From assembly GCA_964016885.1 (NCBI GenBank), contig OZ024744.1, forward strand, positions 68,882,001-68,946,000: 64,000 nt of DNA, given 5' to 3'. Positions 8,706-62,233 of the stretch are shown here, one piece after another. Under the pieces are notes generated by a model. That model was not told the DNA's origin. It did no database searches and saw only the letters and a program-made list of their open reading frames with translations. Each line of letters begins with the position of its first letter. Within the stretch, counting starts at the first letter, position 1. The position numbers and the translations under genes are program-made. Source of the DNA: Eledone cirrhosa. Taxonomy: Eukaryota.

Positions 8706-10730
8706 AACATAATAACCGGCAGACTAACACCCAAAATAATTGTAACTGTAGATCAAATAGAACCTGCCCTTTAGATAAAAAATGCTTAATCAAGGATATC
8801 ATATACTCATGCACCGTCACAACTAGCAACTCTTCTGAAACCTATATAGGCTCTACTTCGAACTGCTTCAAAACCAGATACAATTCGTACCTCCACTCTT
8901 TCAAAAAACACAGTCTAGCCAACTCGACTTTACTATCTAGCTACATACACTACATAAAAACTAAAAATAAATCTTATACACTTAAATGGGAAGTTATAGG
9001 TAACGCGACATCGTACAAACCACCTAATAAATTTTGTAACCTCTGTCTACTAGAGACCCATACTATTATCTTCTCAAACCATAACCTCCTTAATAAAAAA
9101 TCAGAAGTGTTCGCGATTGCCAGCACCCCTTCCGACACTCCTTCCAAAACTTTAAACCCAATATATAACAATGTCAGACTTGAACCCGTCACCACCTCTA
9201 GCAACAAACCTCAAGGGCACACCTTACACCACATCTCCACACTCGTTGATCCACTTTAACACAAATAGTGACATCCTCCTAGTACCTTTTACCCTAGAGA
9301 TATCCCCATGTACATCTACTTTTTGTATATTTGCCTTCAATTACTTAGACTACATTACACCACTATATAATTAATGAACACTATATAATTAATGAACTTT
9401 AAACACTGAATTAGTTGTGCTATTGTTGTTCTGTGTATGGAGTGCCATCATTGGATAAATGGAAGATTAATTAATTTATTAACATAAAACATCTATATAA
9501 CCTATATGCTGAGTGCAATGAATTATGTACAAGTGATGTATGAGTTATACATACATGTATGACTTTATGGTCAGATTAGTGACATTGTAAGTGAGAATTT
9601 ATCTCTGGTCTACCCTAGTGATATTTAACTTTGCCATGCAATCAGACATGCACTGACCCAGAGCTTACCAGGAGTTATATATAGAAGTGATTCTAATAAA
9701 ACCCTGGCCGGTTCTGCGGGTAGACTACACTTACAAAGATCATTGATTTTGGGATCTGACTCTTCATGTAGAATATTCAGTTGTGGCACTCTATGATAGA
9801 GGGTAATCATCCTAATATGAACACCTTTAGTACTTCTTGATAGACTACACTGTAATTATAGATGGGATACTTAAATTTAGAAACTGTTTATAACCTTATA
9901 TGATAGGGACTCATTTGAGACACCATTTATTGTACATTAGGATAATAAATTTAGTTATAGAAATCAGCTAGCTACCTCCTCTCACGCATTAACTCCCCTT
10001 AATTACACACACACTTCCGGAAAATAATACGATGTCAATTCTCGCAACAAAAACAACCTGCTCTATAAAATTGGATTAAAGATCAACAAGCTGTAATATT
10101 CTAACTTAATTCATCAAGCATCCAATATTGAATCATCGTAGATTATGTGAAGGACAAATATAATCTATATATTACGTTTCCTGGATTGTGAAAATGGTGG
10201 TGCATACGAAAACCATAACATTATTTTGCTTCTCATTTTTAATATTTCTCTACACACAAGCTTCTATATCATACATATAAAAAAAATACTTTACCAATAC
10301 AACCCCCATAATACTCTTGATTGCCCGCTTAAAGTGCTTGTATTACATATAACACCCTGCCGCACTATAATCTTATATAAACAAGACACACGTACATGCC
10401 CCATGTGTAACTATTGTATACACTAACTACTTCAAACTATCCTCTTGCTTTATCTTCGTAAACTGCCAATGTTGTATTTTAACTTTAATTTTGTTCTTTG
10501 ATGTGACTTTAATCTTTGAATGTAAATTGCCATGCTAAATATTATAATGGATGTCAACCCACTGTGCATCAATATATACATATGTTTCTGTATGTCTCTT
10601 GTGTTGAAAAGGAGGTCATGTATGTAAACAATCATTGAAAAATTGCTCCGAAGACTCCAAACCTCAGTTTGGAAGAAACAATTGTAAGTGAATAAATGGT
10701 TTAAACAGAACTTTGATTCATGTAATTTCT
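8706..10730 (+). mobile_element. Penelope-like element 3' fragment (Hydra-type GIY-YIG endonuclease + 3' region)
   Basis: CNCRSNRTCPLDKKC (CxCx5Cx5C), IIY...YIG, FKTRYNS and CNLCLLE. A hammerhead-like motif near 10650 suggests the 3' pLTR. The 3' boundary is uncertain. Confidence 0.75.
10643..10691 (+). ncRNA. Degenerate type I hammerhead ribozyme (U4>C)
   Basis: ttgct-CCGAAGA-c tccaaac ctca gtttgga a-GAAA-caattg-TA-agtga. Stem III is the palindrome ACAATTGT, and AATAAA follows. Confidence 0.65.
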
Positions 10731-10889
10731 ATATAACTGCTCTGTAGAACAACTGATGTTATTACATTGAGCTATTTATCTTACTGGTAATAAGGTAGTA
10801 ATAAATTACTGTCTTTCACTATTTAGGGTTTTAAATATATATAACTATAAAAGGTTTTAGTATATACATAACCATAAATAGTATCCTTA

Positions 10890-11000
10890 ATACTATATAT
10901 ATATATATATATTTATATATATATATATATATATATATATATATATATATATATATATATATATATATATATATATATATATATATATATATATATATAC
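10890..11000. repeat. (TA)n microsatellite
   Basis: Seen directly. Many similar (TA)n tracts occur throughout the window. Confidence 0.95.
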
Positions 11001-11417
11001 ATATGTATATATGTGTTGATATGTGTTTGTATGTAGTATATATGGACTGTAGATACATTTACATATAGGGAAGTGAATATGTGATCCAGCATGGTCCCCC
11101 ACACTTCCTCTCCCAGACCAATATCAACGAGACATCTTTGACAATTATCTTTCTTTTCTCTTTTTCCTGTCATCCCATTCTTATTAAAAGACATGTATCT
11201 TACCCCTCATTAAAACCCAGACAAGCACCTAAATTCATCTTTGATATAGAAATTTGTAGAAGATAATCTTTATGGATTTGGAAAAGTTGATTCAGCTATG
11301 TCATTATATGTTCATGAAAGGTCAGCTAATGAAATAAAACCAGCAGGAGAGTAGGTTTACGACCACCTTCTCAAACACCCTTATCTTACAACCTCACCAT
11401 TTTCTGAGTGTATATAT

Positions 11418-11492
11418 ATGTGTGTGTGTGTGTGTGTGTGTGTGTGTGTGTGTGTGTGTGTGTGTGTGTGTGTGTGTGTGTGTGTGTGTGTG
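11418..11492. repeat. (TG)n microsatellite
   Basis: Seen directly. Confidence 0.95.
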
Positions 11493-11730
11493 AATGTGTG
11501 TATATATTAATTCTTCCGGATCTTCATCATCAACACTCATTAACACCACACACCACACCCGAGACACATCCAAATCTCTATTATATATAGTCACACATTT
11601 CAACACAACCTGATCTCAGTTTGACAATCGCCACAGACAGACGAATGCGAGAAAGTTCTCCAACCCAAGTTAACCAGGAATCTCTAAAATACTTCCCACC
11701 GAAGTTAACAAAGAACTTACTGGATCTACC

Positions 11731-11894
11731 AGAGTCGGACACTATGATTTGAAGCATAGAGTTACGTCCCTTTATGATCTGAGTTCAAATCCCGCCGAGG
11801 TTAACTTTGCCTTTCATCCTTACGGGGTCGATAAAATAAAGTACCAGTAATACACTGGGTACTTGCTGGTCTTGTGCCAAAAGTTGAAACAATT
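11731..11894 (+). mobile_element. SINE (same family as 36234-36424), 5'-truncated
   Basis: Box B-like gagttcaaatcc plus the conserved body ttaactttgcctttcatccttacggggtcgataaaataaagtaccagtaatacactgg, shared by six copies in the window. Confidence 0.85.
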
Positions 11895-60238: not shown

Positions 60239-60304
60239 TATTTCATTATACATATTTCGGGGATACCATATTAAAAATATGGCATGCCTTCTTCAGATAA
60301 AATA
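60239..60304 (-). ncRNA. Type I hammerhead ribozyme (inverted copy of 61280-61345)
   Basis: Minus strand: tattttat-CTGAAGA-aggcatgccatatt ttt aatatggtatcccc-GAAA-tatgta-TA-atgaaata. Confidence 0.75.
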
Positions 60305-61279
60305 CAATATATAAACATTTTATAAATAATTTTGACGTACCATAAATATAACACAAAGAAAAAAATTTTTTTCTGTGAAACAAGAAATTACAGAGTTGAT
60401 CACATAAAATCATGGGTATGTCTATAGTGTCAACTAGAACTTGAGATGACCTTCTCTTTTTCTCTTTCTTTCCTTTTCCGGAAAATGCATATGCATGTGT
60501 ATATATATTTCCGTATTTTTTGAAGTTTTATCTCATTTTTGGTACATCGACCTCAGAATTTTTAAACTAAACATATGGTCATTGTTGAGCAAAATTATTT
60601 TCACACATTATATATCTATGTCTCATTCATGAATATTGATATTTACATTATATTACCCAATTCATATGAATTGATAATTCAAATTGATAGGACATAACGT
60701 AAAGATGTAAATCTATCATCCCTCTCTCTAGATATAGCTCTTTCTTCTCCTCCCTCTTTATATATGATGAAATCTATGTATCGGTTGTTTTAACTTTGCC
60801 TCTCGAGTTTCTCTCTTGTTTCTCTCTCATTTCTCTCCTATTTCTCTCACCTCCCCATATATAATTATTATTATTTGGGCTACCTCTATTCTCCCCCCCC
60901 CCACTTCTATCTTTCTCTCTCTCTGTTTTCTCTTCATTTCTTATTTTCTCTCCGCCCCCTCCCCAACTGTCCTTAACACTATAACTAAATAATTACAGTA
61001 CACCCTCCCTCCTAAATCTCTCAATTTGTATGATGAACTATTATTATTCATCTGTTGCCTCAGCTGCTTCTCTTTTTTCACCCTATTTCTCTCTCCCCTA
61101 TCTCTCTCTATTTCTCTCTATTTTTCTTTACATACATTTCTTCTTTTTCTCTGTCTTTCTTTTTAACTGTGCTTAACACTAAATATTTGTAAACATCTCA
61201 CTACCAAACCAGCTTTTTACATAACGGTTGGTCAATATTTATGGTACGTCAAAATTATTTATAAAATGTTTATATATTG

Positions 61280-61345
61280 TATTTTATCTGAAGAAGGCAT
61301 GCCATATTTTTAATATGGCATCCCCGAAATATGTATAATGAAATA
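61280..61345 (+). ncRNA. Type I hammerhead ribozyme
   Basis: tattttat-CTGAAGA-aggcatgccatatt ttt aatatggcatcccc-GAAA-tatgta-TA-atgaaata. Stem I is 8 bp and the triplet is AUA. Confidence 0.75.
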
Positions 61346-61534
61346 AATATGGTTTTATAAATATAGTTTCCATTTGTTTAATATCGTATATCTACTCCAA
61401 AACTTGTCGAGTGCTTTATATCAGTTATAAAATATTTACTTGTTGTAACCCAACAATTTTATATAAAACTTTTGCATATATATATATATATATACATATA
61501 TACACACATACATATATATATATACATATACATA

Positions 61535-61860
61535 TATATACATAATTATAAAAATAAATAAATAAAGATAAATAAACGAATATAATGCATATACTAAAGT
61601 AAGCAGTCAAATGACCTTACACGGACAAAATACATATATATGAAATCAAAATAATAAATAAATAAAAGTAAAATATAAAGTCAAATATAAAAAAAATTTT
61701 ATAATTTTTATATTTGACTTTATATTTTACGTTTATATGTTTATTATTTTGATTTCATATATATGTATTTTGTCTGTAAGGTCATATGACTGCTTACTTT
61801 AGTATAGGCATTATATTCGTTTATTTATCTTTATTTATTTATTTTTATAATTATGTATAT
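61535..61860. repeat. AT-rich palindrome, ~160 bp arms
   Basis: catatactaaagtaagcagtca.atgaccttaca... pairs with ...tgtaaggtcatatgactgcttactttagtata. The centre is near 61697. Confidence 0.9.
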
Positions 61861-62173
61861 AATATGTATATACATATATATATATATATCTATATGTGTA
61901 TATATGTATATCTATATCTATATATATATATATATATATATATATATATATATATATATATATATATATATATATATATATATATATGTATATGTGTTTT
62001 TGTGTATTTATGTGTATGTATATATATATATATATGTGTGTGTATATATATGTGTGTGTGTGTTTATATACTTTTCTATTTATTATCTTTTTCTACTTCT
62101 TCCTTCAGCCTCACTGTCATATTTCTAATATTTTTGATTTTCAAATCCACATCCAATAAAAACACCAGGATTT

Positions 62174-62233
62174 TTTCATTCTGACGAACGAAAGCAGATT
62201 TATTTGCTTTCAAGAAACCAGTGGTAAATGAAA
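62174..62233 (+). ncRNA. Type I hammerhead ribozyme
   Basis: tttcatt-CTGACGA-ac gaaagcaga ttta tttgctttc aa-GAAA-ccagtgg-TA-aatgaaa. The base of stem II is mismatched. Confidence 0.65.

Follow-up and report, generated by a model that had tools for sequence, protein, structure and literature searches.

The stretch of DNA considered here, hereafter the window, comprises 64,000 nt of the 3.0-Gb genome of Eledone cirrhosa (contig OZ024744.1, positions 68,882,001-68,946,000, forward strand). Its content is animal transposon debris, namely elements that lack long terminal repeats (non-LTR elements) and have reverse transcriptase (RT), a Helitron, and remnants of Penelope-like elements (PLEs). Within this debris lie ten type I hammerhead ribozyme motifs, all with the CUGANGA, GAAA, and UH cores in type I order, three helices, and pairable stems, at the positions given in a preliminary description of this DNA. 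They are accompanied by further copies with altered or incomplete cores, by broken PLE open reading frames (ORFs), and by a fragment of a non-coding tandem unit (Table 1). Hammerhead positions (e.g., position 17, U3-A8, U4C) are numbered according to the usual scheme.

Table 1. Hammerhead motifs, their parent elements, and other features of the window
Feature	Position	Strand	Remarks
Family A hammerhead, canonical type I	59822-59866	+	stem III ACTAGT; predicted cut after C59859
Fragment of 465-nt non-coding tandem unit, retrozyme-like	59789-60160	+	between TA repeats
Family B hammerhead	21254-21374	-	92-nt stem II; stem III ACACGTGT; 3' end of Hydra-type PLE
Broken RT/GIY-YIG remnant of family B element	22205-23246	-	
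Family C hammerhead	51394-51432	+	stem III AGTACT; U-U at stem II base; 5'-truncated copy from near 51376
Family D hammerhead	51668-51725	-	stem III ATGATCAT
Family D, 3' half	53048-53130	+	96% inverted match to 51668-
Family E hammerhead	59066-59129	-	stem III ATATATAT; end of Hydra-type element
Family F hammerhead	60239-60304	-	stem III ATATGTAT; clusters with E; inverted twin of 61280+; 15 copies in 1.37-Mb genome sample
Family F hammerhead, second copy	61280-61345	+	twin of 60239-
Family G hammerhead	62174-62233	+	odd-length stem III ACCAGTGGT; ACCACTGGT in most copies
Family G, rearranged copy	59385-59445	-	GAAA lost through fold-back
Family H hammerhead	10643-10691	+	family-wide U4C core CCGAAGA; stem III ACAATTGT; ~1.4 kb behind Hydra-type endonuclease
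Hydra-type GIY-YIG endonuclease remnant of family H element	8741-9256	+	CxCX5C linker
Family I hammerhead	58728-58815	+	family-wide CCGTCGA core; long stem II; stem III ACGCGCGT; G at position 17 in this copy
Family I copy	53495-53577	-	3' end of element 53442-58869; palindrome decayed
Family I relative	23284-23367	+	CTGACGA core; GAAC instead of GAAA; truncated fold-back
Broken Hydra-type RT/endonuclease ORF	55946-58139	-	between two family I repeats
Family J hammerhead	13116-13157	+	non-palindromic AGAACT; weak stem I; ~300 nt behind PLE endonuclease remnant 12603-12800
Family K hammerhead	13587-13633	+	4-bp hairpin stem III (ACAG/CTGT, 8-nt loop); truncated fold-back insertion; 26 copies in 1.37-Mb genome sample
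3' half of abundant repeat	13398-13427	+	76 matches in fetched loci
Short repeated end sequence	12520-12602, 13278-13357, 62492-62585		in TA runs; common to PLE-type and other elements
Non-LTR retrotransposon RT ORF	6296-7609	+	437 aa
Non-LTR retrotransposon RT ORF	18877-20829	+	650 aa
Non-LTR retrotransposon RT ORF	40307-43036	-	909 aa
Non-LTR retrotransposon RT ORF	45614-48757	+	1047 aa
Broken Helitron	27153-31206		Helitron_like_N, E 4e-38; 69-bp tandem repeat at 30643-30887
Near-perfect inverted repeat, resembling a miniature inverted-repeat transposable element (MITE)	31967-32224		258 bp; source of spurious microRNA matches

The final descriptor used to score these motifs accepts a stem II of up to 110 nt, whose base may include unpaired nucleotides, and a stem III of up to 20 nt, and does not require a palindrome. 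From the window it recovers exactly these ten motifs, whereas 100 block-wise dinucleotide shuffles give 0.19 on average (maximum 2). The descriptor had been loosened in four steps with the window motifs in view, and a sample of the genome is for that reason the cleaner test. This sample comprises 137 ten-kilobase blocks (1.37 Mb) placed on a fixed grid over 27 large contigs, with ten blocks each from contigs C3 and C4 and with small unplaced contigs excluded. It holds 136 motifs in 70 of its blocks (99 per Mb), as against 2.25 per shuffle in 20 shuffles, an excess of about 60-fold. Some core variants are likewise more frequent than in shuffled sequence (U3-A8, 22 versus 8.2; U4C, 9 versus 1.9), whereas control cores remain at background (G3-C8, 3 versus 4.0; A3-U8, 10 versus 9.8).

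Strata of the sample range from 40 to 170 motifs per Mb, and the stratified estimate for the whole genome is 294,000 intact-core motifs (bootstrap 95% interval, 229,000-364,000), these being sequence motifs rather than demonstrated enzymes. A narrower descriptor finds 71 motifs in the sample, corresponding to ~155,000 genome-wide. The very large ribozyme complement that had been extrapolated from the window is thus borne out as a motif count (~290,000, or 155,000 with the narrower descriptor). The exceptional density claimed for the window itself is not: its ten motifs in 64 kb compare with 6.4 expected from the sample, a random 64 kb reaches ten with a probability of 0.16 by resampling (0.11 under a Poisson model), and the window is typical of the genome.

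The third helix is the most distinctive part of these motifs. Although the descriptor does not require it, stem III, which in PLE hammerheads is palindromic over positions 15.2-16.2 and loop 3, is self-complementary in 102 of the 136 sample motifs versus 5 of 45 shuffled motifs. Of 19 distinct even-length sequences, 16 have complementary bases at the innermost pair, which a monomer hairpin has no way of forming; chance gives 0.385 for each (P = 6e-5, relatedness ignored). By computation, a 2-bp stem III forced on the monomer costs 2.2-5.9 kcal/mol, and homodimers of perfect 6-10-nt palindromes are stabilised by 3-10 kcal/mol. These results support a stem III design predicted to work in dimers, in which alone the central pair would be formable. 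Further evidence for conserved helices comes from an alignment of nine retrozyme-type motifs belonging to the group of family A. Of its 21 pairs, 10 show changes in both partners, a number reached in none of 500 shuffles (slid controls give at most 3), and stems I and II covary.

All six palindromes quoted in the preliminary description are present, but only five of the ten window motifs have a Watson-Crick palindrome. The exceptions are the AGAACT of 13116, the hairpin of 13587, the ATATGTAT of 60239 and 61280, which needs G-U pairs, and the odd-length stem of 62174. The stems ATATGTAT, ATGTGTAT, and ATGTGCAT all occur, so that G-U intermediates between palindromes are present, and the families with ATGCGCAT and ATATATAT are homologous (71% over 402 nt). 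Palindromes may differ from lineage to lineage for the reason that self-complementarity is all that is needed, leaving the sequence free to drift via such intermediates.

Contrary to the initial impression that the stems are unrelated in sequence, several sites are inverted twins or relatives of one another. The sites 60239- and 61280+ form an inverted pair with 99% identity and share a cluster with 59066-; 51668-/53048+ and 53495-/58728+ are further inverted pairs, with 23284+ being 77-79% like the latter; and 59385- is a copy from the family of 62174+. After these are merged, 10-11 families remain, in keeping with the earlier minimum of eight. Six of the seven sites first regarded as degenerate or half motifs belong, as copies, either to these families or to further ones. 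For 10643+ and 58728+ the label of degenerate itself has to be dropped: their CCGAAGA and CCGTCGA cores occur in all 15 loci fetched per family, and private decay of these two copies was rejected since the core changes are family-wide in H and I. The seventh site, 13398+, is likely a U3-A8 core-variant hammerhead with a hairpin stem III, to judge from four longer copies in which a TTGA(G/T)AA core and an ACCCC/GGGGT stem I can be read by eye; the variant-core scan did not recover these four copies. All nine families searched in the genome are dispersed, each with at least 40-60 scored matches among 45-1,760 candidates per family.

Some structural variants recur outside the window families. U3-A8 core families with palindromes of their own (ACGATCGT, ACCGGT) or with hairpins are seen at fetched loci L198:9017-9340, L239:6337, L166:9812, and L208:5801. 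Stem II inserts of 78-97 nt with a paired base occur in several different families (window 21270-21362, minus strand; L166, L167, L184, L187, L249, L268). At the base of stem II, copies of family J show one additional base behind position 9 and then G10.1-C11.1, where U-U stands in many families.

The parent elements can be recognised for several of the window families. In families B, C, E, H, I, and J, a PLE RT/endonuclease ORF is found on the strand of the hammerhead, which is placed at its end or immediately in front of it. Beyond the window, 10 of 24 other family B loci have a same-strand RT/endonuclease upstream; family E has an endonuclease upstream in 3 of 19 other loci and, in one more, an ORF start downstream; and an RT/endonuclease ORF precedes the ribozyme in 2 of 14 loci of family I and in 1 of 14 of family H, with locus L294 colinear with the window over 9300-10735. 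For family C, the ribozyme of locus L324 is in a repeat that immediately precedes a near-complete Hydra-type ORF, and an inverted copy is also present. The 58728+ motif is the inverted upstream repeat of the family I element, and the endonuclease remnant preceding the family J motif is of the CCHH-bearing clade. Six families are thus found at PLE ends, five of them Hydra-clade by motif.

The published marks of the Hydra clade are a GIY-YIG endonuclease that is C-terminal and lacks CCHH, a CxCX5C linker, DKT, and RWK (Craig et al. 2021, PMC8557442). The Hydra-type proteins found here have a C-terminal endonuclease without CCHH; CxCX5C occurs in the window (8741, 51166) as well as in L324 and L325, DKT in L323, L324, and L001, and RWK only in L001. 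By motif, then, the element proteins appear to carry the Hydra-clade marks. A protein homologue search gave 499 proteins without informative names, and Pfam did not recognise the PLE fragments of the window. A TA run lies within 150 nt downstream of 91 of the 136 sample motifs, versus 32 expected. An inverted partner is present within 1.5 kb for 56 of the 136, and a same-strand partner for 33.

Family A stands apart in being a non-coding tandem retrozyme rather than the pseudo-LTR of a coding element. The initial comparison with PLE hammerheads is supported, as are the coexistence of many families and the dimer-type stem III, with this one family as the exception to an origin in pseudo-LTRs. 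The 465-nt unit has at least 41 matches at 100% identity among 873 candidates in the genome, arranged in head-to-tail arrays with inverted truncated copies, and its monomer folds with a z-score of -10.5 relative to shuffles. A second retrozyme family with units of ~452-472 bp (L169, L191, L192, L199) shares with A the loop II, the stem I bulge, and ACTAGT, and has a U-U stem II base; it accounts for 17 of the 136 sample motifs and family A itself for none. We also noted four contig runs of unknown kind that cover all or part of the 465-nt unit, three of them with a head-to-tail joint, which tandem DNA also yields, so that they speak neither for nor against expression; no RNA record was listed for the unit. 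Contigs of runs X4 and X6, from two other organisms, contain all or most of the unit (L013:1300-1764) plus the joint at low depth, reflecting either a relative or contamination.

Taken together, we consider it probable (roughly 0.85) that the motifs, as type I hammerhead sequences, belong to the terminal repeats both of PLEs that target TA repeats, mostly of the Hydra clade as judged by motif, and of a non-coding tandem retrozyme, that most copies are likely inert truncated ends, and that the palindromic stem III would serve to pair two copies and cut out unit-length RNA. Following published work (PMC4209133, PMC7229834), two copies on one transcript would pair via stem III and release the unit RNA, which may then circularise, and the retrozyme might be mobilised by PLE proteins. 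We further infer that reverse transcription begins at the 3' end, in which case even the shortest insertions would retain the ribozyme and lose the ORF. This would explain how ~100 motifs per Mb can coexist with PLE coding matches amounting to only 1.9% of the genome sample, and why most copies are likely silent relics. As an uncontrolled observation, many short insertions are perfect fold-backs truncated inside or just before the hammerhead (13551-13645, 13398-13427; L309-L322, L085, L230, L215), a pattern suggestive of stalling or strand switching of reverse transcription at the ribozyme.

Several results weigh against this combined PLE and retrozyme origin or limit its reach. Sample motifs show no enrichment at distances up to 1.5 kb from PLE coding remnants (13 of 136 versus 10.3 expected), and the excess of PLE coding sequence upstream of motifs is modest (10 versus 5.0 within 3 kb, P = 0.03; 13 versus 6.9 within 5 kb, P = 0.014). 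No firm parent is at hand for D, F, G, and K: a same-strand PLE protein within a reach of 1.5 kb was found for D, G, and K in 0 of 19, 1 of 19 (upstream), and 1 of 14 other loci, respectively, and the genome was not searched for F. A partner on the same strand that shares the stem III is present in the block of only 22 of the 136 motifs. The covariation alignment consists of nine related motifs, few and akin; stem II has G and C at its ends in only 18 of 136 sample motifs and U and U in 38; and several monomers fold no better than shuffles.

Two quite different origins may be set beside it. One is that the motifs are chance matches in AT-rich, fold-back-rich DNA. Such a reading can draw on the strict textbook descriptor, which recovers only two of the ten window motifs (59829+ and 59123-; 0.04 per shuffle), and on Rfam, whose sole match in the window (59811-59881, HH9, 34.2 bits) lies under the gathering cut-off of 52 and misses the other nine. 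It can also draw on the loosening of the descriptor with the window in view and on the fact that block shuffles destroy inverted repeats. Against it stand the 60-fold excess in sequence outside the tuning, the background level of the control cores, the unrequired palindromes, and the two-sided covariation, and we reject it as highly improbable. The other would make the window a special cluster of ribozymes that performs a host function. Ten intact-core motifs in 64 kb are indeed 1.6 times the sample mean, but this falls within the range of resampled blocks, and the 11 other blocks of the same contig hold 118 motifs per Mb. With each of the nine families searched having at least 40 dispersed genome matches, and with the window consisting of transposon debris, a window-specific cluster was likewise rejected and appears highly improbable.

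A more subtle question concerns the meaning of the differing palindromes, which had been proposed to act as family-specific dimerisation keys. On this proposal they would have been selected to block cross-family dimerisation, keeping the processing of each element private and sparing host transcripts. Loose clustering puts the 146 motifs into 36 clusters with 30 distinct modal stem III sequences (a tight threshold gives 51 clusters); homodimer energies are mostly better than those of cross pairs in the window matrix; and related families have shifted to incompatible palindromes. Moreover, for 57 of the 136 sample motifs the block also contains a neighbour on the same strand whose stem III differs, so that cross-family encounters would be common and incompatibility could matter as a by-product. 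However, in-register cross-pairing is possible for 11 of 630 cluster pairs versus 3.95 for random palindromes of equal lengths (P = 0.003 for the excess), so that palindrome sharing is not avoided: ACAATTGT is common to three clusters and the 10643 family, and ATATATAT/ATATGTAT to four clusters. Several stem III variants occur together in the largest cluster, which takes in 39 of the 146 motifs, and a true palindrome is missing from families G, J, and K. Since ~99% of pairs would be incompatible with random palindromes already, no selection needs to be invoked. The palindromes are thus shared between families more than by chance, vary within families, and are absent from some, and selected keys seem unlikely; shared ancestry may inflate the sharing, so the proposal is weakened rather than excluded. 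Nearly as doubtful is the broader notion that the largest load yet counted is tolerated as most motifs cut only in matched pairs, the diverged palindromes forming an insulating code within host pre-mRNA. We lean instead toward the simpler statement that this genome carries a record hammerhead load and nothing more, which we regard as likelier than a selected insulating code.

Even so, the motif set amounts to a natural mutagenesis library for the dimer model, in which family-wide U4C, U-U, and long-stem-II variants are available. The survival of host introns with so many potential cut sites also becomes a testable question.

In comparison with known systems, the dimer-type design, the presence of many families per genome, and the differing palindromes are already published. 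The closest counterparts are the PLE hammerheads described by Cervera and de la Pena in 2014 (PMC4209133), which are type I, have a small palindromic helix III with a dimer requirement, and form several consensus families per genome. As here, they are mostly solo motifs from truncated elements, occur as inverted pairs 100-700 bp apart, and include the U3-A8 core variant. Their numbers are given as ~2,000-9,000 per genome, in contrast to the estimated 155,000-290,000 here, with descriptors that differ between the studies; stem II inserts above 45 nt (8 of 136 motifs) and family-wide U4C cores also set the present motifs apart. With the Hydra-clade PLEs (PMC8557442), the elements share the protein motifs, TA-repeat targets, hammerheads, and inverted truncated upstream copies, but whereas few families were reported there outside cnidarians, Hydra-type elements, as placed by motif, are abundant and diverse in E. 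cirrhosa. Palindromic stem/loop III is also a likeness to the repeat-type hammerheads of Perreault et al. 2011 (PMC3088659), the text of which contains no family-key idea as far as covered. Neither such a proposal nor a count for a comparable genome was found in the literature searched, the supplements of which may already tabulate palindrome diversity or discuss specificity.

Family A resembles the animal non-LTR retrozymes (PMC7229834; bioRxiv 10.64898/2026.07.22.740005) in its non-coding tandem units, type I hammerhead, and strongly self-paired monomer. The same retrozyme papers describe a U-U mismatch at the helix II base in axolotl HHR_Amex2 and 16 families in one coral genome. At 465 nt, the unit, known here from DNA, exceeds the 170-400 nt given by Cervera and de la Pena in 2020 (PMC7229834) but fits the 51-972 bp range of Li et al. 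(bioRxiv 10.64898/2026.07.22.740005). The largest published count found is that of the axolotl, with 126,247 motifs in ~28 Gb, or ~4.5 per Mb (PMC7229834), as opposed to 52-99 per Mb in E. cirrhosa, a comparison that is provisional because the descriptors differ. A load of about one motif per 10 kb would exceed that count at more than 10 times its density. Thus, while the design of these ribozymes is known, it is their scale, with 150,000-300,000 intact-core motifs in at least 36 clusters, that is the noteworthy part.

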